A program made the translations under genes and the position numbers. From contig CASDWE010000002.1 in the NCBI GenBank assembly GCA_949284685.1, positions 596,106-660,105 of the forward strand: a stretch of DNA of 64,000 nucleotides, read 5' to 3'. The notes beneath the pieces are model-generated. The model had not been told where the DNA came from and made no database searches. It saw only the letters and a list, made by a program, of their open reading frames with translations. This DNA is from an uncultured bacterium. Its GTDB lineage: Bacteria > Bacillota_I > Bacilli_A > RFN20 > CAG-826. Position 1 is the first letter of the stretch. Each line of letters starts with the position of its first letter. Shown piece after piece: positions 1,338 through 33,688 of this stretch.

Positions 1338-2003
1338 TCATTTTGCACCCTTATGATTTAACACAGCAGGTATAGTTAAAAATATAAGTTTTAAATCGAA
1401 AAACAAACTTCTTTTTCTTAAATAGGCAAGTTCCATTTCTTGTCTTTTTCTATTTTTGTATGTGACATCGCTTCTTCCATAAGCTTGCCAATATCCAGTA
1501 AGTCCAGGTTTAACACTTAATAATGCATTTTGTTCCTCTTTTGTATAATTTGCATCTAATTCATTTCTTGCAACAGGGCGAGGTCCCACAAATGACATAT
1601 TTCCAATAAATATGTTAAACAATTGAGGCAATTCATCTAATGAAGTTTTTCTTAAGATTTTACCGATTTTGGTTATTCTTTTATCATTATCAATTTTTCG
1701 TTCAATTTTCCATTTTTCGATTTCTTCTTTTGACATATATTTTTCAATATTTGCTTCAGCATCAACATACATTGTGCGGAATTTATATACATTAATTTCT
1801 TTATGATTTCTTCCAACTCTTTTGTCTTTAAAAATAACTTTTCCTGGAGAATTTATAGCAATTAAAATAACAATTATTAAAAATAGAAAAGATAAAATAA
1901 TTATTGATAAAGTTGAAAATAAAATATCAAAAAATCTTTTAAAAAAATCATAAGTTTTTGATTTTCTAATATAAATTAAGTCAGCGTCCATTTTCTTTCC
2001 CAT
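1338..2003 (-). CDS. Bacterial sugar transferase, an undecaprenyl-phosphate hexose-1-phosphate transferase of the WbaP/CpsE C-terminal-domain type
   Basis: It has an N-terminal transmembrane (TM) helix, then KRFFDI...INSPGKVIFKDKRVGRN...YKFRTM...DELPQLFNIFIGNMSFVGPRP, the hallmark of this family. Confidence 0.75.
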   Translation of the reverse strand: MGKKMDADLIYIRKSKTYDFFKRFFDILFSTLSIIILSFLFLIIVILIAINSPGKVIFKDKRVGRNHKEINVYKFRTMYVDAEANIEKYMSKEEIEKWKIERKIDNDKRITKIGKILRKTSLDELPQLFNIFIGNMSFVGPRPVARNELDANYTKEEQNALLSVKPGLTGYWQAYGRSDVTYKNRKRQEMELAYLRKRSLFFDLKLIFLTIPAVLNHKGAK

Positions 2004-2231
2004 TTACAACATTTTCAAATTATACACAAATAAGTTTTATTTGCAACCATGGGTTACATATATTTATAGACATGTTGATATATTTATAAATTTTAATATA
2101 ATATTATCTGATTGGGGAGTAGCGTGACATATTTGTCGTCAATACGATATATTAAATATATCCGGCCATATGTGATAATATAGCAAGACCAAGTTACACA
2201 TTAATGCTTAATTATAAAGGAGTATTTCTTC

Positions 2232-5150
2232 ATGAGAAAAAAAGAAAAATCAAATAGTAGTTCACCTACTCAAAATAATAAAAAGATTGCTTATGAATCT
2301 TTAACAATAGAACAAACAAAGCAAGCTCTTTCAACTGATATTGATAAAGGTTTAACAAATGAAGAAGCGAAAGCAAGATTAGAAAAATATGGTCCAAATA
2401 AATTACAAGAAAAAAAGAAAAAAAGTTGGATAAGAATATTTTTTGAACAAATGAACAATCCAATGATTTTTGTTCTTTTTGCTGCGATTGGTGTTTGTAT
2501 AGCGGTTTCAATTTATGAAACAATCAATACAATGAATATTATAAATACTGGAGGAGAGGCTGCATTCGATTGGTTAGTAAATCATGGTTTTATTCTAGAA
2601 GGCACCGACTTTGATTCAAATTTAATTGGTCCCGCGAGTAGTCAAATCAACTGGTTTTTAGATATCGGGGATTGGTCTGATGTTATTATCATTTTAGCGG
2701 TCGTTTTATTAAATTCTATAATTGGTACTGTTCAAGAAGTTAAAGCTCAAACATCCTTAGAAGCTTTAAAAAAGCTGTCGTCACCAGAATCCACTGTTAT
2801 TAGAGGCGGGAAAAGATTTAAAGTTAAATCGTCTGATTTAGTTATTGGTGATGTAGTTATTTTAGAAGAAGGAGACACTATTGGAGCGGATTTACGTCTT
2901 GTTGAAGCTGTTAATTTAAAAGCAAACGAATCATCATTAACTGGTGAATCTGTTCCTGTTGATAAAGATTGTCAAATAACTTTTTCTAACGAAGTAGCAC
3001 TTGGTGACAAATGCAATATGGCTTTTATGTCCACTCCTGTTAGTTATGGTCGTGGTCGCGGTATTGTATGTGCAACAGGCATGAATACTGAAATAGGTAA
3101 AATTGCTACAGCATTAGATGAGGAAGAAGATAGCCAAACTCCACTTCAAAAAATATTAGCCAAACTATCAAAGTTCCTTGGTTTATTGACATTAGTAGTA
3201 GTAATTTTAGTTTTAATAGCAGATATTATTTGGATATTCGTTGATGGAAACGGAAGTAATATTGAATCCTGGATTGAAGCTATTTTATCTTCTATTGCAT
3301 TAGCGGTTGCTGCAATACCTGAAGGATTAGCTGCTGTTGTCACAATTGTTTTATCTATAGGTGTTAGAAAGATGACGAAAGTTAACACTATTGTTAGAAA
3401 ACTTCCGTCTGTTGAAACATTAGGTGCTGTTAGTGTTGTTTGTAGTGACAAAACTGGAACTTTAACTCAAAATAAGATGACCGTTTTAAAAGCTTATACA
3501 AACAATTCTTTCTATGTAAGTGAAGACTTTAATAAAGAAAATAAAGAAGAACATTTATTATTGTTAGCAAAAGGCATGTCGCTATGTAGTAACGCCACTG
3601 TTGATGAAGGATTGTATGGTGATCCTACTGAAATCGCTCTAGTGGCTTTTGCTAATGAATTTAATATGCGCAAAAAAGATTTAGAAAAAGCATTGCCACG
3701 TGTCGATGAATTGCCTTTTGATTCAGTTAGAAAAATGATGTCTACCAAACATAAAAAAGATGATAAAAAACACATCATTTTTACCAAAGGTGCGTTAGAC
3801 TCTATTCTTTCAAATACCTCATTTATTCTAGAAAATGGAAAAGAAAGAAAAATAACAAAACAAGATATTGATAAAATTTATGAAGTGAATTCCATGTATT
3901 CTAATGAGGCATTACGTGTATTGGCATTGGCTTATTCAAATAAAGAAACAATCGAAGAAAAAGATTTAATTTTTGTTGGTTTAGTGGCAATGATTGACCC
4001 CGCTAGACCTGAAGCAAAACCTGCAGTAAGTAAATTTAAAGGTGCTGGCATTGTGACAGTTATGATTACTGGCGACCATAAAGATACCGCTTTTGCTATC
4101 GCCAAAGAATTAGGAATAGTGGAAACAATTGATCAATGTGTAATGGGTAAAGAAATAGATGCTTTAACTTTTGATGAATTATGTGAAATTTGTAAAAAAA
4201 CTAGGGTTTTTGCAAGAGTTTCGCCAGAAAATAAGGTCCAAATTGTTAAAGCTTTCCAAGCAAATGGCAACATTTGTGCGATGACAGGTGATGGTGTTAA
4301 TGACGCTCCTTCTTTAAAAGCAGCAGATATTGGCATTGCAATGGGCATTACTGGAACCGATGTTGCTAAAGGTGCTGCTGATATGGTTTTAACCGACGAT
4401 AATTTTGCTAGCATTGAAAAAGCAGTAGAAGAAGGTCGAGGGATTTATGCTAATATCAAGAAAACTGTTATTTTCTTACTTTCTTCAAACATTGCAGAAG
4501 TATTAGCAATGTTTTTTATCATATGTATTGGCTTTCCCGCTCCATTAATTGCCATTCATTTGCTTTGGGTTAATTTAATTACTGACTCAACACCAGCAAT
4601 TGCACTAGGTATGGATGGAAAAGATAGCAATATCATGAAAGAAAAACCACGAGATCCAAAAGAAACTTTCTTTGCTCATGGCGGCCTTATTATTACTTTG
4701 GTTTATGGTGCAATACTAACTATTGCCGTACTACTTGCTTACTTTAGTTGTGCTTGGACGCATGGTGTATATGATTTTAATGGCATTAAAAATTTATATT
4801 CTGATAATCCTACAATTTTGCACGAAGCCCAAACAATGGCTTTTACGACCTTGGCGGTTGGAGAATTATTCCATATGGTTGGAATGTCAAATATCAAACA
4901 AAGTTTTGTTAGAATTTTCGCTAAGAAAAATTATATGATGTTAATCGCTTTTGTCGTTGGCATTGCTTTACAATTATTTGTTATTGAAACTCCAGGAGTT
5001 CAAGATGTTTTTAGTACCGCTAATCTTGATTGGAAAGAATGGTTGATTACTTGTTCGCTTTCTGTTATTCCATTAGTGGCACATGAATTAATTGTCTTTG
5101 GTATGTGGATTAAAAACAAAATTAAAAACAAAAAATTAAAAACAAATTAA
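2232..5150 (+). CDS. P-type cation-transporting ATPase of type IIA (Ca2+-ATPase-like)
   Basis: The phosphorylation motif CSDKTGTLTQN, MITGDHKDTA and the hinge GDGVNDAPSLKAADIGIAMG are all present, with multiple TM segments. An AAAGGAG RBS sits 8 nt upstream. Length is 972 aa. Confidence 0.85.
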   Translation: MRKKEKSNSSSPTQNNKKIAYESLTIEQTKQALSTDIDKGLTNEEAKARLEKYGPNKLQEKKKKSWIRIFFEQMNNPMIFVLFAAIGVCIAVSIYETINTMNIINTGGEAAFDWLVNHGFILEGTDFDSNLIGPASSQINWFLDIGDWSDVIIILAVVLLNSIIGTVQEVKAQTSLEALKKLSSPESTVIRGGKRFKVKSSDLVIGDVVILEEGDTIGADLRLVEAVNLKANESSLTGESVPVDKDCQITFSNEVALGDKCNMAFMSTPVSYGRGRGIVCATGMNTEIGKIATALDEEEDSQTPLQKILAKLSKFLGLLTLVVVILVLIADIIWIFVDGNGSNIESWIEAILSSIALAVAAIPEGLAAVVTIVLSIGVRKMTKVNTIVRKLPSVETLGAVSVVCSDKTGTLTQNKMTVLKAYTNNSFYVSEDFNKENKEEHLLLLAKGMSLCSNATVDEGLYGDPTEIALVAFANEFNMRKKDLEKALPRVDELPFDSVRKMMSTKHKKDDKKHIIFTKGALDSILSNTSFILENGKERKITKQDIDKIYEVNSMYSNEALRVLALAYSNKETIEEKDLIFVGLVAMIDPARPEAKPAVSKFKGAGIVTVMITGDHKDTAFAIAKELGIVETIDQCVMGKEIDALTFDELCEICKKTRVFARVSPENKVQIVKAFQANGNICAMTGDGVNDAPSLKAADIGIAMGITGTDVAKGAADMVLTDDNFASIEKAVEEGRGIYANIKKTVIFLLSSNIAEVLAMFFIICIGFPAPLIAIHLLWVNLITDSTPAIALGMDGKDSNIMKEKPRDPKETFFAHGGLIITLVYGAILTIAVLLAYFSCAWTHGVYDFNGIKNLYSDNPTILHEAQTMAFTTLAVGELFHMVGMSNIKQSFVRIFAKKNYMMLIAFVVGIALQLFVIETPGVQDVFSTANLDWKEWLITCSLSVIPLVAHELIVFGMWIKNKIKNKKLKTN

Positions 5151-27092: not shown

Positions 27093-28751
27093 ATGATTAC
27101 ATCAAAACAATTAGCGGATCTTATTTTTCCTGAAGTAACTAAAACAATTGATGATTTAGAAAAACTTTTTCCAAGTAGAAATCTTCCACAAGATGCGGAA
27201 GTAACGCGTTTTGCACCTTCTCCTACTGGGTTTTTGCATACTGGAAGTTTATTTACTTCAATGATTTGTCAAAAATTAGCAAAACAAACAAATGGTGTTT
27301 TTTATATTCGTTTAGAAGATACAGATACTAAAAGGGAAATTCAAGGGTCTGGAGAAAAATTGTTAGAAGAAATGAAACAATTTAATATCGTTCCAAATGA
27401 AGGCTATTTTGGTTCACATCAAAAGGGAGATTATGGTCCATATATTCAAAGCCAACGTTCTGAAATTTATAAAATCTGTATTAAATACCTTTTACAGCAA
27501 GGATTAGCGTATCCATGTTTTTGTTCAAGCAAAGATATTGAAGAATTAAGAACTGTTCAAGAAGCAAATAAAATATTGCCGGGATATTATGGACCATATG
27601 CAAAATGTCGAAGTCTTTCTCTTGATGAAGCTTATGGAAAAATTAAAAATAATGAACCATTTGTAATTAGATTTAAGTCAAGTGGAAATCATAATAATAA
27701 AATTAAAGTCGATGATTTAATTCATGGAACTTTTTCAATCGCAGAAAACGATCAAGATATTGTCATTTATAAATCAGATGGCCTTCCCACATATCATTTT
27801 GCTCATGTTTGTGATGATCATTTTATGCATACAACGACAGTAATACGTGGGGAAGAATGGATTTCATCACTACCAATTCATTTGCAATTATTTAAAGCAA
27901 TGAATTGGCAACCCCCAAAATACGCTCACGTGCCAGTAATCATGAAAGTTGATGAAAATGGTAACAAACGTAAATTATCAAAAAGAAAAGACGCTGAAGC
28001 AGCAGTTAGTTATTTTTTAGATGATGGTTATCCAAGCGAAGCACTTATCATGTATTTGATGACAATCGCTAATTCTAATTTTGAAGAATGGATTTTTGAA
28101 CACGATTTTAAAAATATGGAAGAATTTGAATTTTCATTTAGTAAAATGTCATTAGATGGTGCCTTGTTTGATATAAATAAATTACAGTTCTTCGCTCGCG
28201 AAATTTTGGCTAGAAAAACAAAACACGAAATGTTATTAATGGCTTTAGATTTTGCCAATAAACACGATCAAAATCTTTTATATCACATTAATTTAAATCA
28301 TGAATATTTTGAAGAAATAATGAATATAGAAAGAGAAGTAGAAAAACCAAGAAAAGATTATTATAAATTTGGTAACATGTTAGATTATATTGGATTTTTC
28401 TACCATGATTTATATGATGTTAATATTGATATTAATTTGTTTAATCAAAATATTGATAAAACGATTATTAAAAATGTTTTGTTGGATTTAAAAAAACTAG
28501 ATTTTAGCAAACCTCAAAATGAATGGTTTGAACAAATGAAAGAAATTGCCTCAAAACATAATTTCGCTTCCTCAAATAAAGAATATAAGCAAAACAAAGA
28601 TATGTATGTAGGGCAAGTAGGCGATGTTGCAGAAATGTTAAGAATAACTTTGTGCAATCGAAAAAACGCTCCTAATTTATATTGCGTGATGGTAGTTTTG
28701 GGCAAAAACGAAGTTATGCGTCGTATTGATAAAATCGTGACTTTGTTGTAA
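27093..28751 (+). CDS. gltX: Glutamate--tRNA ligase
   Basis: The class I HIGH motif reads RFAPSPTGFLHTGSL, and KLSKR is the KMSKS motif. There is an AAGGAG RBS. Confidence 0.85.
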   Translation: MITSKQLADLIFPEVTKTIDDLEKLFPSRNLPQDAEVTRFAPSPTGFLHTGSLFTSMICQKLAKQTNGVFYIRLEDTDTKREIQGSGEKLLEEMKQFNIVPNEGYFGSHQKGDYGPYIQSQRSEIYKICIKYLLQQGLAYPCFCSSKDIEELRTVQEANKILPGYYGPYAKCRSLSLDEAYGKIKNNEPFVIRFKSSGNHNNKIKVDDLIHGTFSIAENDQDIVIYKSDGLPTYHFAHVCDDHFMHTTTVIRGEEWISSLPIHLQLFKAMNWQPPKYAHVPVIMKVDENGNKRKLSKRKDAEAAVSYFLDDGYPSEALIMYLMTIANSNFEEWIFEHDFKNMEEFEFSFSKMSLDGALFDINKLQFFAREILARKTKHEMLLMALDFANKHDQNLLYHINLNHEYFEEIMNIEREVEKPRKDYYKFGNMLDYIGFFYHDLYDVNIDINLFNQNIDKTIIKNVLLDLKKLDFSKPQNEWFEQMKEIASKHNFASSNKEYKQNKDMYVGQVGDVAEMLRITLCNRKNAPNLYCVMVVLGKNEVMRRIDKIVTLL

Positions 28752-28774
28752 TATCATAAAGACAACAAGTCAAT

Positions 28775-28849
28775 GGCCCCATGGTCAAGAGGTTAAGACG
28801 AGACCCTCTCAAGGTCTAATCCCGAGTTCGATTCTCGGTGGGGTCGCCA
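28775..28849 (+). tRNA. tRNA-Glu, anticodon CUC as read by eye
   Basis: The acceptor stem ggcccca/tggggtc has one G-U pair. The Glu-type D-arm tggtcaagaggttaagac is present. The anticodon arm is agacc-ctCTCaa-ggtct and the T-arm is ccgag-ttcgatt-ctcgg, with an encoded CCA. Confidence 0.65.
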
Positions 28850-29120
28850 TCATTTGAATATTGTAAAAATTATTTTAGACAGTTATAGATTAAAAGAAAT
28901 GGCTGATTATATAAATAGAAAAAAGATATTTAATTTTTTAGCAGGAGAATTTTCGAAAGTTAAAGATGGGGAAAATTAAAAAAATATTAACATTTTAAAT
29001 TGATATTTCCCAAGCTCAAGAATGTTCATATTAATCTTAATTATTTTTAAAATGGTGTGGAAGTCATAGGTTAAAATGCAGCTGGTATATTTAATTTTGA
29101 TGAACTTTACTCATAATTAT

Positions 29121-29176
29121 TAGTTTTTCTCTCATTTTGTGTTATAATTTATGGGAAAGAGGTTGAATATGAGAGA
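29121..29176. repeat. Inverted-repeat module ttctctcat-N32-atgagagaa spanning the Fic promoter and start codon
   Basis: The left arm tagtttttctctcatttt (29121-29138) and right arm atatgagagaa (29166-29176) enclose an extended -10 (TGtTATAAT, 29140-29148). A second copy flanks the 3' end of the gene. Confidence 0.45.
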
Positions 29177-30218
29177 ATTTGATTATAGTAAACTAAAATA
29201 TAAATCTTGGAATAATGAAATACTTCTTAAGGTAGCAAATATTCATGAAGCAAAGGGAAAACAAGAGCTATATTTGGCTCAAAAACCTGATGATTTGAAT
29301 AGATTAGTTGAAATTGCTAAAATACAAAGTACTGAAGCAAGTAATGCAATAGAAGGAATTAGAACAACTGATTCAAGATTAAAACAACTTATAAACGAAA
29401 AGACTACTCCAAAAAATAGAAACGAAAAAGAAATAGCAGGATATAGAGATGCATTATCAACTATTCACGATAGTTTTGAATATATTCCATTAACGCCTAA
29501 TTATATTTTACAATTACATTCTATTTTATGTTCTCATAATGATGAAGTTAATGATGGTGGGAAATTTAAAAATGTCCAAAATTATATAAGTACAACTGAT
29601 GAAAAAGGTAATAGTTATACTTTATTTACCCCGCTTTCACCATTTGAAACTCCTTTCGCAATTAAAAATTTATGTGATGAATATAATAAGGCGGCAGAAA
29701 AAAAAGAAGTTGATCCACTTATTTTAATCCCCATTTTTATTCATGATTTTTTATGTATACATCCATTTAATGATGGTAATGGAAGAATGTCTAGGTTACT
29801 TACAACTTTACTTTTATATAAATCTGGATATTATGTTGGAAAATATATTTCTTTAGAAGCAAAAATATCAAAGATAAAAGATTTATATTATGATGCCTTG
29901 TTCGATTCTCAACATGGATGGCACGAAGGAAATGATAATCCAACCCCATTTGTTAAATATTTACTAAGCATTATTGAGATGGCCTATGATGATTTTGAAC
30001 AACGAGTAAAACTAATATCTAAAAAGCTGTCTGCATATGAACTGGTTGATAATGCAATTAAGCAAAAACTTGGCAAAATTACAAAATCTAATATTGCGGA
30101 ATTATGCCCAAGTTTATCTATTAGCGCTATTGAAAAAGCAATGGCTAAAATGGTAGAGGAAGGAAAACTTGAAAAACAAGGTTCTGGTAAAACAACATAT
30201 TACATAGTGAAATTATAG
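29169..30218 (+). CDS. Fic/Doc-family protein (AMPylation/adenylyltransferase fold)
   Basis: The canonical Fic motif HPFNDGNGRMSRLL is present. A GAAAGAGG RBS lies 6 nt upstream of the ATG at 29169. The track's 29151 start is in the same frame. Confidence 0.8.
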   Translation: MREFDYSKLKYKSWNNEILLKVANIHEAKGKQELYLAQKPDDLNRLVEIAKIQSTEASNAIEGIRTTDSRLKQLINEKTTPKNRNEKEIAGYRDALSTIHDSFEYIPLTPNYILQLHSILCSHNDEVNDGGKFKNVQNYISTTDEKGNSYTLFTPLSPFETPFAIKNLCDEYNKAAEKKEVDPLILIPIFIHDFLCIHPFNDGNGRMSRLLTTLLLYKSGYYVGKYISLEAKISKIKDLYYDALFDSQHGWHEGNDNPTPFVKYLLSIIEMAYDDFEQRVKLISKKLSAYELVDNAIKQKLGKITKSNIAELCPSLSISAIEKAMAKMVEEGKLEKQGSGKTTYYIVKL

Positions 30219-30270
30219 TTTCTCTCATTTGACATAATATTTTACGAGAAATTTTTTAAAAATGAGAGAA
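30218..30270. repeat. Second copy of the inverted-repeat module (ttctctcattt-N26-aaatgagagaa), immediately after the Fic stop codon
   Basis: tagtttctctcattt (30218-30232) and aaatgagagaa (30259-30269) repeat the motif seen at 29121-29176. Confidence 0.45.
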
Positions 30271-30563
30271 CCACCTCATAAAAGTACGATATGTCTGATA
30301 TAAACTTAGAAAATTTCTAGGTGTATCCAGACTTTTTTAATTTATATCCCCATCAAAACAGCTTTGAGATCTCCATATGGTGAGAAGGGTACGGGGTGAG
30401 CCACAAGGCCAAGATTGGCGGGCAAAGAAGAATACTATGGGAAATATCGATAAAACCTCAACTTTATATAGGGGTTGCAAAGTTGGCAAGGGGGTTGCGC
30501 TTTATAACTAGGGGTCGCAACCGCATTAAAATAGGTATTCTTGTCCATACGATATAAAAATAT

Positions 30564-30599
30564 AAACTTGAACAGAAAATAACTAGTTCAAGTTTTTTA
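30564..30599 (+). terminator. Rho-independent terminator, possibly bidirectional
   Basis: acttgaac-agaaaataacta-gttcaagt has an 8-bp perfect stem and is followed by TTTTTT. It is preceded by an A-run. Confidence 0.55.
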
Positions 30600-31004
30600 T
30601 CAATTAGTGGATAATTTAAACGTGTACGTATCTTTAAAAAGATTGTTTTATTCGATAAACTTTAATACAAGTTGTTAAATTCACAGCTTAGGATTGGAAG
30701 GTTTTTTATGTCTCACATCAATTAATTAAAGAATCATAGAAGTTTTAACAATAAATTAGAGTTTAACATCGAAAATAGGTCTATTTAAAGGAATTAAAAA
30801 GTAGCATAACGAACTGAGTATAAACAAGAGATGTAAAACAAGAAAAATCATATATTTAATATTTTTATCAAAAAAAAGCTTGATAATTATGATTCTTTTG
30901 TTATTCGTTTTAAAAATATTTGATGTTAATAATTTAAATTATCATAAAGACACGAATTAGATTGCTATAGCAAATAAAATACATATAAATTTAAATAAAA
31001 TCAC

Positions 31005-31026
31005 TGCAAAACTGACTTATTTTGTG
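31005..31026 (+). promoter_or_regulatory. Conserved upstream motif TGCAAAACTGACTTATTTT (copy 1), about 25 nt upstream of an extended -10 (TGaTAAAAT, 31046-31054)
   Basis: A near-identical 19-mer recurs at 38292-38310 upstream of another envelope-protein gene. Confidence 0.35.
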
Positions 31027-31088
31027 TACTCTTTTTCAAATATTTGATAAAATATTTAAGTCAGAAAAAATGAAAGGAGTGACAATTA

Positions 31089-33688
31089 ATGGAGAAAAAA
31101 TCTTTTTTATTTTTAGCGGTAGTTTTTTCGCTTCTTCTTGCTGGATGTAATAATGTTGATAATACATCTAGCGAGAATTCATCTACAACAAGTGTTGGTG
31201 GTAGTTCATCTTCTTCAAGTGAAGTTAACGTTAATCCACCATCATTTTTATTAGGTAAATTTTATGCTCCTACTGGAATACTTACCGTAAACGAAAAAGA
31301 AGCTGTTTTAGATGATTTAACTTTATCTTATATTGATTATGATGAAGCCGAAGAAATATTATATTTAGAAAATTTTAATGGCGGAGATGCATATCGTTTA
31401 TATCTTTCTAACAGTGAAAAAATGGAAGTCATTTTAGATATTCAAAATGGAGAAAATTTTGAAATTATTGATACTTTTATGCCAGATATCACTCAATTTG
31501 TAGGTACATACACTGCGTATGGTGATTCTAGTCCTTATAATATTCCTATCGTTATTACAGATGAATATGTTAGTGATTTAGATACCTTTACGGTTAATCA
31601 ACCACTTTATTCTTATGGTCTTATGATAATGATTATTACTATGTATCAACATATTTTGCATATATCGATGGTGAATTAAAAACAATGATCGACATCTTAG
31701 ATTACGAAGATGATTATCTTTATTATTCTTGCTATTTGACTATCAATAATGGGATTGCTTCGCTTTATGATGTTCTTTATGATAGCGAAGCATATTATGC
31801 TGATCTATCATTTGTATATGGGACTTATTTTGTTGATGATAATAAAACTTTATCGTTTGAATATTCTCCAGTTTATGATGAAAACACATGGGAATATTCT
31901 ATTAACTCAGAATTGATGATTGATGGAGAATCGTTCAACATTGAACTTATTTATGATAATGGTTCTTATCTAAAAATTTATAATGACAGCAGAGAAGCAC
32001 TTCTTCAATCTACCGCTTATGGATTAAAGTGGATTGAAAATAATAAAATTAACTATTATCCGTATAATACTCTTGAACATTTGGTTGGGACATATAAAAA
32101 TGAAGTTGGTTTTGTATATAGTTTTCAACTCGACAATGCGAATTTAATTGATGGAACACTTCTAATTAACAATCAGCAAAATGAATTCGAAGTAGTTATT
32201 TTTGAAGATAAATTAGGCATTTCGACCCATGTTGATGGATATAATGAAAATGTTGTATTTATCGAATTTAAAACAAATATATCTATAGAAATGTATGCAA
32301 ATGAATCTTTTTCCTATTTAATTAATTACGATGCTTTTTTAGAAGCTTTCCAACGAACTTATTTTCAAATTGTTTATACATCAAATGGATCCATAGTTCA
32401 TTTTTATAATGTTGATTCTAATTTAACATTAAGTTCTAATAATCAAACTTTTGAAGGATATTTTAAATATAATCCAAGAGAAGATTATCCAAAACTTGTT
32501 TATTCTGATTGGTCGATAAGTGTTATCGATTATGAAAATAAAATATTTGCTATGACTAATAACATCGATGGAAAAATAAAGTATTTATTTGATATATCTT
32601 TTTTTGATAATCTAGATAACAAAGATTACACTAACGGAAAAGAAAAAATATCTTTTATTTATGATAACGAGAAAATTAATTTAGATTATAAAAATGAAAA
32701 TCTTTCTTTTGTTTTAATTCCCATTTATGATGCATATTCTTTTTCGTATTTAATTGCTGTTGATTTTGAACTTGCTGGTGAGTATTTAGAATTAATTTAT
32801 TCTGAAGGTGGGCAATGGACAGAATATATTTTGGAAAACGAACAATATATTGCAAATGATAGTTATATTCCACTTGATACATTTAACAAATTAGTTGGCG
32901 TATATAAATATGAAGGACAATATGGTGTCGAAGGTTTCGAACTTACTAGCGATGGTCATTTTTACGCTGATACCTTAAATGAAAAAGGTGATGGATTAAT
33001 TTATCATCAAGAAATGGAATATCAATTACAAATGTATCCTCTTGGTAATGGTGAAGTTTCTCCTGTTATTTCCTTTTATTATGATGGAATGTGGATTAAT
33101 TGTTATTTTGAAGATTATTCTTTACTTGTCGTTGAAACTAGGTATGTAAGAGAAGAATTATTTAATTATAGTGGTATTTATGTCGATTCAACTAACACTA
33201 GCATAATTGCTATTTACCAAAACAAAATAATGATTAATGGAGTAGAAGCATTAATTAACAACATTAAAATTGTAGATGATACATTAAATATTGAAGTGAC
33301 AATAAATGGTGAAATATCAACAATTATACTATCAACTGTCGATGGAGTTAAAAAGATAACATATAACGATATTGAACTAATTTTAAATGATGTTAATTAT
33401 AGTTCATTTGTTGGTACTTATACCGATGAAAGTGGCAACACTTATACATTTGATAACCATTATGGATTAGGTGGTATTATTAACGGATTTGAACTAACCT
33501 ACACATCTGTCTCAAGTGGATTGCCAACAGTGTATACTGATTTTACTGTCATATTAATGAACGGACATATTACTTTAAAATTCAGTGGTATAAGCGAAAC
33601 TTATTATTTAGAAATGACCGATACTGGAGTTATAGCATCGCTTGAAAGTAGCATTCCTCTTCCACCCCCACCTCCACCAGTAGGATAG
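31089..33688 (+). pseudogene. Tyr/Asp-rich surface lipoprotein gene interrupted by a -1 frameshift near 31615-31640 (fragments 31089-31679 and 31685-33688)
   Basis: The first ORF has a signal peptide and lipobox LLAGC and ends after the out-of-character tail LMIMIITMYQHILHISMVN. The second ORF lacks a signal peptide. Its frame is open upstream of its ATG as ...SYDNDYYYVSTYFAYIDGELK, the same composition as the rest. The shift maps to a CTTATGgtCTTATG direct repeat. Both parts carry FVGTYT-type repeats. Confidence 0.45.

Follow-up and report, generated by a model that had tools for sequence, protein, structure and literature searches.

Inverted-repeat arrays at both ends of a winged-helix Fic gene: a predicted autoregulatory operator and its candidate auxiliary copy

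To our knowledge, the regulation of Fic enzymes that carry a winged helix has been examined in two proteins only. A CccR dimer of Yersinia pseudotuberculosis (PDB 7XUX) represses its own promoter through AGATAATCAT-N26-ATGATAATCT, i.e. two 10-bp inverted repeats 26 bp apart near the −35 and −10 elements, as demonstrated with DNase footprinting, electrophoretic mobility shift assays, lacZ fusions and isothermal titration calorimetry (PMC9755527). The dimer of SoFic from Shewanella oneidensis (SO_4266, PDB 3EQX) binds specifically to the 100 bp that precede its own start codon, and about 1,800 InterPro entries display the Fic plus winged-helix organisation (bioRxiv 10.64898/2026.07.09.737422). 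Sofic of E. coli shows toxicity and takes part in defence against phages, and a small antitoxin gene, AS1, lies downstream of it (PMC12249575). Winged-helix Fic enzymes are widespread and have been linked to anti-phage defence and interbacterial toxicity. Here, we analyze a gene of this family found in a 64,000-nt stretch of contig CASDWE010000002.1 from an uncultured bacterium, the whole of which we call the window, and in which an inverted-repeat module occurs at each end of the gene. This DNA is part of a 722-kb contig (ERZ16268261 scaffold_0). We consider it probable that these modules are operator sites by which the winged helix of the Fic protein would repress its own gene, the copy after the stop codon acting as an auxiliary operator.

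The start codon of the Fic gene lies 6 nt past the ribosome-binding site (RBS) AAGAGG, which results in a protein of 349 residues, the length of most homologues. Judging from its motifs and profile matches, this product is a Fic AMP-transferase of class II whose C-terminal domain is a winged helix, and it belongs to the SoFic/CccR type. It matches the Pfam family Fic (PF02661, 4e-19, 69.6 bits) and contains the catalytic motif HxFx(D/E)GNGRxxR in the form HPFNDGNGRMSR. The class II inhibitory motif, defined as (S/T)xxxE(G/N) for CccR, where it reads S59ARIEG (PMC9755527), is found as SNAIEG in STEASNAIEGIRT, N-terminal to the Fic core on the same polypeptide. The 75 C-terminal residues match the DsrD winged helix of Pfam with 25.7 bits for a cut-off of 24.2, and other winged-helix families match weakly. 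The PADLOC profile of the SoFic anti-phage family (PDLC03963, E = 3e-42) covers nearly the whole protein, with residues 14–334 aligned to positions 20–337 of 361. Sequence matches to solved structures include 8UQU over the full length (1e-73), SoFic 3EQX (1e-8) and CccR 7XUX (9e-8), the last one over residues 61–336, which comprise the Fic and helix-turn-helix regions.

The window protein thus shares a class II Fic domain and a winged helix with SoFic, and a class II Fic domain plus a C-terminal helix-turn-helix with CccR. The setting is different from that of CccR, which is a type VI secretion effector of a proteobacterium, whereas the window gene belongs to a small, low-GC genome of the Bacilli type. 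As for the SoFic family, relatives of the window gene adjoin GmrSD in L013, Schlafen/AlbA (SLFN_AlbA_2) and AAA_14 in L012, and RloB in L113 (L-numbers designate the loci of Fic relatives). Close homologues, with 75–95% identity, are plentiful in gut metagenomes.

The repeated module is readily seen in the window, as a sequence-only reading of this DNA had noticed. Its motif TAGTTTTTCTCTCATTTT is present at 29121–29138, and its second copy, TAGTTTCTCTCATTT, does exist after the Fic gene, at 30216–30230 and not at 30218–30232 as given there, which is 2 nt too high; the TAG of this copy is the stop codon of Fic. In both copies, the arm TTCTCTCAT is complementary to a downstream arm, ATGAGAGAA, across a spacer of exactly 33 nt, and the sequence TTCTCTCAT-N33-ATGAGAGAA occurs twice in the window (29127–29177 and 30220–30270) and never in 100 shuffles. 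Both modules are part of a single ungapped direct repeat of 59 nt, 29119–29177 against 30212–30270, with 71% identity, and they have the same internal geometry, with 13 nt between half-sites 1 and 2 and 11 nt between half-sites 2 and 3 (Table 1). The 11-mer TTCTCTCATTT has four copies in the window for 0.18 expected, and the 9-mer is confined to the Fic gene except for one chance match in a coding region. The last of the four 11-mer copies (63795) falls within a coding region and was dismissed as a chance match. The repeat observation is therefore confirmed, including the overlap of the 3′ arm of the left module with the Fic start, the arm beginning with the ATG itself. The surroundings are also as described, with a tRNA-Glu(CUC) gene 272 nt upstream of the module and a non-coding tail of 870 nt, in which no convincing open reading frame (ORF) is found between the Fic stop codon and the next ORF at 31089.

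Table 1 Features of the Fic locus in the window.
Feature	Position	Strand	Remarks
tRNA-Glu(CUC)	28775–28849	+	ARAGORN; Rfam tRNA, 60 bits; start of variable island
Upstream auxiliary half-site TTTACTCAT	29106–29114	+	7/9 match to TTCTCTCAT; about 20 nt 5′ of left arm
Predicted sigma-70-type promoter	29120–29148	+	−35 TTAGTT 29120–29125; 17-nt spacer; extended −10 TGtTATAAT 29140–29148
Left half-site 1 (left arm) TTCTCTCAT	29127–29135	+	distant relatives have TTCCCTTAA or TTCTCCTAA here
Left half-site 2 (proximal, inverted) TTATGGGAA	29149–29157	+	13 nt past half-site 1; at predicted transcription start
RBS AAGAGG	29157–29162	+	from the sequence
Left half-site 3 (distal, inverted) ATGAGAGAA	29169–29177	+	start codon and Fic codons 2 and 3; perfect complement of half-site 1
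Fic gene	29169–30218	+	349 aa; SoFic/CccR type; stop codon TAG 30216–30218
Right half-site 1′ TTCTCTCAT	30220–30228	+	begins 2 nt after stop TAG; conserved across lineages
Right half-site 2′ TTACGAGAA	30242–30250	+	13 nt past 1′, as left; sole copy in window; best-conserved block of right modules from 10 lineages
Right half-site 3′ ATGAGAGAA	30262–30270	+	11 nt past 2′, as left; no RBS before
Terminator-like hairpin GTCTG...CAGAC, then TTTTTT	30292–30338	+	RNA fold

The left module extends over the −35 and −10 elements of the gene's own predicted promoter. The left arm lies in the spacer between them, and two inverse copies follow, the first of which, TTATGGGAA, is in the alignment of relatives a degenerate version of their TTACGAGAA. 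The sequence-only reading had the left copy overlapping the extended −10; this element does lie between the two arms, placed directly after the left one. The weaker site 5′ of the −35 has counterparts upstream of the −35 in relatives (TTCTCTCGTAT in L024, TTCCCGTAAT in L012 and TTCTCTCAA in L116) and coincides with the left edge of the DNA common to loci in different contexts, as this block starts at 29105–29112. The centres of the half-sites, at about 29110, 29131, 29153 and 29173, follow each other in steps of about two helical turns, with four turns between the perfectly complementary pair. With half-sites interleaved in this way with the promoter, bound Fic would keep RNA polymerase away and thereby shut down its own production, as experiments have shown for CccR.

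This organization resembles that of CccR, in which repeats of approximately 10 bp, inverted and with an unusually long spacer, lie around the −35 and −10 of the protein's own promoter (PMC9755527); the left module has 9-bp arms and a 33-nt spacer that spans the −10. The two differ in the half-site sequence and in the spacing, since CccR has a single N26 pair, against three or four half-sites at N13 and N33 in the window. For SoFic, the binding site is defined as the 100 bp before the start codon and not at base level.

We collected the loci of relatives by exact protein look-up, by scanning 185,579 species genomes for the exact module, and by a protein-based metagenome scan. The exact-module scan yielded 14 loci, 10 of them at Fic homologues; the other four have no Fic gene and correspond approximately to the chance rate for an 18-base pattern. 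The module is thus associated exclusively with this Fic family and is no generic regulator site. A scan of viral contigs for the exact module gave one match, in a metagenome-assembled genome of a giant virus without Fic, which is at chance level. The sequence-only reading would have been undermined by a widespread 17-mer or by relatives having Fic without the repeats: the module is not generic, but some relatives (L012, L013, L114) do have Fic without the downstream copy.

The promoter arrangement is shared by about 70 distinct relatives: in all of them, a half-site lies between the −35 and the −10, an inverse half-site comes after the −10, and past the RBS there is a further inverse half-site at or just before the ATG. 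The core promoter layout TTGAYT-N17/18-TATAAT is kept across all of these relatives, their inverse half-site falls at the predicted transcription start, and an extra half-site or an entire palindrome is frequently found upstream of the promoter.

While the layout is constant, the half-sites are lineage-specific. Most of the ~60%-identity clade has TTCCCTTAA and the inverse TTAAGGGAA, whereas a sub-clade of it has TTCTCCTAA and TTAGGAGAA. L012 has TTCTCGTAA and TTACGAGAA, the 65%-identity clade TTTCTCACC and GGTGAGAAA, and the window clade TTCTCTCAT, TTACGAGAA and ATGAGAGAA. The recognition helix of the winged helix differs according to the half-site class, and both change together: it reads SLSxSSxEGALRKLV in the TTCCCTTAA class, TxxKASxENxIKxLV in the TTAGGAGAA class, SLSISAIEKAMAKMV in the window type and SLSSTSIERSLKELC in the TTTCTCACC class. 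L056, with two tandem Fic paralogues on the same strand (538–1584 and 2501–3547), provides a within-genome control for this link, because the paralogues have orthogonal operators, TTTCGTCCAA/TTGGACGAAA for one and TTCCCTTAA for the other, and different recognition helices.

Given the conserved layout and the half-sites changing with the recognition helix, we conclude that the left module is a predicted autoregulatory operator array of the CccR type, hence of a kind already known, to which binding is itself a prediction. The autoregulatory operator put forward by the sequence-only reading is well supported, owing to the winged helix of Fic, the CccR and SoFic precedents and the layout kept in the relatives. 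Most probably, Fic itself binds there by means of the winged helix at its C terminus.

The right module is a paralogue of the entire left array, in which the −10 and the RBS are not retained. It lies in the 3′ untranslated region, between the Fic stop codon and a hairpin followed by UUUUUU (Table 1). A simple terminator scan missed both hairpin-plus-T-run sites, which were revealed by folding; in the case of the hairpin in Table 1, the loop and stem rules of the scan were stricter. The order stop codon, operator copy and terminator is also observed in L015, L021, L022, L056, L082, and L073. When right modules from 10 lineages are compared, the half-site columns are 89% identical and the spacer columns 60% (permutation p < 2e-4), the best-conserved block being TTTTACGAGAA, which would fall in the loop of any hairpin.

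Distant relatives also carry their own operator past the stop codon. In 53 distinct loci of the ~60%-identity clade, we found 17 matches to the locus's own half-site within 80 nt past the stop codon, for an expectation of 1.14 derived from the remainder of these loci (P about 9e-15). A full own palindrome is present in six loci, at +12 to +20 and +36 to +44. L056 is an example of a post-stop copy, with TTTCCCTTAA-N13-TTAAGGGAAA at +18, and there only the second paralogue has it. In some of these distant copies the upstream and distal half-sites are also present, and a terminator comes next in several. That the post-stop copy follows the half-site of each lineage speaks for selection on binding by the cognate protein, and points to an auxiliary operator under selection and not to cassette ends. 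A post-stop operator copy is not mentioned in the available portions of the Fic literature consulted, among it that on CccR, SoFic and E. coli Sofic, and no literature search was aimed at it; for CccR, the promoter site alone is described there.

We also considered a small antitoxin ORF, similar to AS1 of E. coli, starting at the right ATGAGAGAA. This candidate was rejected, as the length and sequence of the short ORFs, compared by eye, vary among loci (MREPPHKSTICLI followed by a stop codon in the window, 26 aa in L001 and 7 aa in L024) and no RBS precedes them. The window gene thus differs from E. coli Sofic, with AS1 downstream, in having no conserved small ORF after it.

Taken as binding sites, the three or four half-sites (consensus TTCTC..A. 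and its inverse) would form an array for a dimeric, gene-specific DNA-binding protein. In the left array, these sites would be occupied within the −35/−10 spacer, at the predicted transcription start and at the start codon, together with the weaker site 5′ of the −35, and we infer that Fic represses transcription from there. The right array, which keeps only the binding determinants, that is, the half-sites and the 13-nt and 11-nt spacings, would be bound by the same protein and act as an auxiliary operator. Its first-choice role would be to loop the 1.09-kb gene with the promoter array, allowing tighter repression of a toxic enzyme; it might otherwise act as a transcription roadblock or insulator, or as a titrating decoy.

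Auxiliary operators inside or beyond the regulated gene, which strengthen repression as looping raises the local repressor concentration, are known from lac (O1/O2), gal (OE/OI), and lambda (OL/OR). As in these systems, the second site of the window is hundreds of bp from the promoter and has no promoter function. In contrast to them, it duplicates a full array of several half-sites and sits precisely between the stop codon and the terminator, and looping by Fic, as well as its oligomerisation beyond the dimer, is only proposed.

Several observations weigh against our interpretation. The right copy is dispensable: L012, L013, and L114 lack it, decay has affected it in L026 and L113, it is diverged in L116, and only about 10 of the 53 distant loci have it. 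Looping would require dimer–dimer contacts, none of which are known, and the N26 spacing reported for CccR is different from N13 and N33. The role of Fic as the binder draws on homology, with binding, transcription start and expression all predicted, and the link between helix and half-site is confounded with phylogeny except in the L056 pair. Moreover, the right copy is ahead of the terminator and hence always transcribed, which makes an RNA role possible, and two kinds of substitution are compatible with pairing in the stem, namely a compensated C>T/G>A pair in L004 and, in the L022 group, an A>G change after which a U.G pair remains.

The right module might accordingly be a stem-loop of the 3′ untranslated region (11 bp with a 29-nt loop), contributing to stability, to termination or to pairing against the start codon (UUCUCUCAU with AUGAGAGAA at the 5′ end), and the left module might fold back on read-through from the upstream tRNA gene to hide the start codon. 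The model for such hiding is the IS10-type protection against outside promoters. Indeed, the right module folds as an 11-bp hairpin, in a region with a fold z-score of −2.8, just ahead of the terminator hairpin; right modules are always 5′ of the terminator; and same-strand tRNA genes lie upstream at several loci.

Nevertheless, a stem-loop does not explain why the loop motif TTTTACGAGAA is the best-conserved block, and the outer stem positions vary without compensation (TTT, TTG, TTA). Left half-site 1 and the upstream half-site are conserved although they are 5′ of the predicted transcription start, and in distant relatives the pairing partner shifts from distal (N33) to proximal (N13) with all half-sites kept. 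The module hairpin does not look like an intrinsic terminator either: it is rich in AT, its loop is 29 nt long, and CCACCUCAU comes after it instead of a U-tract, the U-tract belonging to the separate hairpin downstream. Fold-back inhibition by the left module was rejected, since its hairpin is no stabler than shuffled sequence (z = −0.4). An RNA-level element therefore seems unlikely to us as the explanation of the modules.

The right module could also be a relic without function, i.e. the decaying remainder of a tandem gene duplication or of the promoter of a lost downstream paralogue. This would fit with the missing −10 and RBS, with the losses and decay in L026, L113, L012, L013, and L114 and with the existence of tandem Fic paralogues in L056. 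It would not fit with the unevenness of the decay, which has left the three half-site blocks much more similar than the spacers, nor with the exact 13-nt and 11-nt spacings. In addition, no Fic coding remnant is found beside the solo modules described below or the right modules. Distant right copies carry the half-site of their own lineage, which would require either continued selection or repeated re-creation. We regard a relic as quite improbable.

The operator interpretation has also to be set against mobility, as the sequence-only reading saw in the two copies the termini of a small mobilised cassette. Under this explanation, the modules would be att- or attC-like ends of a 1.1-kb Fic cassette moved by a recombinase encoded elsewhere. 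They are indeed direct repeats, each of which is an inverted repeat, and the DNA common to loci in at least five unrelated contexts, a Fic unit of 1.17 kb, extends from ~29105 to ~30279, so that its limits are very nearly those of the outermost half-sites, with unrelated flanks. Any self-contained gene would nonetheless retain the limits of its own promoter and operators after transfer. As an observation apart, a motif upstream of the unit, AATTTTGATG, is common to the window, L001 and L004 at variable distance and is absent from other lineages.

Integron attC cassettes are similar in that one gene is bracketed by a promoter-proximal and a post-stop site, both imperfect inverted repeats, in many contexts. 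They differ in having an integrase, RYYYAAC/GTTRRRY boxes and arrays. The arms TTCTCTCAT and ATGAGAGAA have no GTTRRRY boxes, no R/L box consensus is visible in the sequence, and no module-linked Fic array was found among 113 Fic loci. The sole tandem pair, L056, shares no operator sequence between its genes, which are separated by a terminator and a separate reading frame, the first gene having no post-stop half-site of its own. The left site of the window is, besides, a predicted promoter and operator, whose conserved bases co-vary with the encoded DNA-binding domain.

The ends of a transposon, an insertion sequence (IS) or a miniature inverted-repeat transposable element do not fit better, as the modules are directly oriented and no target-site duplication is found at the flanks (~29105 and ~30279). 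No integrase or transposase is encoded within ~5 kb on either side of Fic, where the neighbours are DAC, PGM, Nudix, NERD-like, the glutamyl-tRNA synthetase GluRS, two unknown proteins, EAL and ProRS. Only the half-sites are conserved and they track the winged helix, which recombination sites would not do. As a mechanism, cassette termini are thus not supported, and we hold this explanation to be very improbable.

That the Fic unit moves between genomes is a separate matter. Fic is often found in variable islands downstream of same-strand tRNA genes, as in the window, L001, L004, L013, and L026, and the region following tRNA-Glu varies between genomes. The window and the distant L013 share the order GluRS, tRNA-Glu(CUC) and Fic-bearing island, but their Fic proteins are 77% identical and their GluRS proteins just 51%, which, together with the additional GmrSD gene and IS fragment of the L013 island, fits horizontal transfer into a hot spot. 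In L013, positions 1363–3571 ahead of Fic comprise a broken start of an IS3-type transposase and a GmrSD_N (DUF262) gene, which would fit a defence islet at a tRNA gene. An island targeted to the tRNA gene by an integrase is not apparent in the window, since the 3′ end of the tRNA has no direct repeat, the tRNA-like repeats being 18-nt matches of 78% inside Fic, at chance level. Look-ups of the flanking GluRS and 196-aa protein gave only same-strain contigs with Fic, hence no empty site. Of the degraded integrated element suggested by the sequence-only reading, a mobile unit in a tRNA-linked island stays plausible, given the shared block limits and the variable tRNA islands, whereas no integrase or att repeat accompanies it.

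Solo modules of the window type are present in L020 (4861–4911), L023 (2714–2764), and L017 (3482–3532), about 100 nt 5′ of Fic genes with 64–65% identity, whose promoters use the other half-sites TTTCTCACC/GGTGAGAAA. They are 82–84% identical to right modules, including the flanking TCTATA, and no Fic coding remnant is found upstream of them. These modules occupy the same slot of a larger element as in L015, L021, and L024, and a moving cassette could account for them as footprints of excision or insertion. L023 shares an upstream divergent gene with L015, L021, and L024. In L015, L021, L020, and L023, and partly in L022, a conserved element CATAC(T/C)TAAGTGTCAC..TGTCACGCCAGTCACGTGTCAC with four GTCAC repeats lies ~100–150 nt 3′ of Fic, after 88%-identity and 65%-identity Fic alleles alike. 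These features suggest that different Fic alleles are exchanged at one fixed place of a larger element, which may be mobile (L015, L021, L020, L023).

A more speculative view is that the Fic repressor clamps both ends of the gene into a closed loop, the transcribed copy serving as an anti-start-codon sequence in the 3′ untranslated region, or else that the paired arrays are portable homology or recombination arms which swap Fic-plus-operator units between defence islands. We consider this view distinctly unlikely; if true, it would represent a previously undescribed packaging of a toxic defence gene as a self-insulating and self-silencing unit, and portable arms would have their specificity enforced through protein–site co-evolution.

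Returning to the autoregulatory operator and its auxiliary copy, the locus and its relatives offer a base-level operator model transferable to the rest of the family, with fixed distances between the three or four half-sites, which interleave with the −35, the −10 and the start codon. The natural specificity variants, including an orthogonal paralogue pair, may be useful for decoding winged-helix recognition and for building orthogonal repressors. A further operator array recurs at the 3′ end, which suggests that a toxic gene is looped or insulated. More generally, a repeat that resembles the ends of a cassette can have a regulatory explanation.

Two relatives show further features of the Fic surroundings. 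Between tRNA-Ala and the Fic promoter of L004 (~3400–3840), a degraded frame has a Doc/Fic-like motif, IFNDGNKRASVIFANQFLISNGA followed by a stop codon, and looks like what is left of another Fido-family toxin gene of this island, now a pseudogene. In L082, a gene ~120 nt past the Fic terminator starts, by eye, like a phage portal protein (MSILSGLFRSRDKP...); if so, the Fic unit of L082 would be a self-contained gene inserted within a prophage.

In the window, the spacer after Fic contains an island with 46–48% GC (30350–30550) in a background of ~25%, comprising three copies of AGGGG(G)T(T/C)GC ~21 nt apart and followed by AACTTGAAC...GTTCAAGTTTTTT, with a terminator-like hairpin at 30565–30598. 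This island has no Rfam family, no match in phage and plasmid collections and no homologue in the related loci, and its fold z-score is only −1.8. An orphan small RNA, an iteron-like array and foreign debris are all conceivable. The 870-nt spacer has no DNA-level match in the fetched Fic loci, and Rfam gave only tRNAs, for the whole window at gathering thresholds as well as for 28700–31200 at E ≤ 10. The spacer is followed by two adjacent ORFs of 196 and 667 aa (31089–33688), for which Pfam gives no confident family. A lipoprotein-like signal (..LLLAGC) is seen in the first, and PPPPPPVG forms the end of the second.

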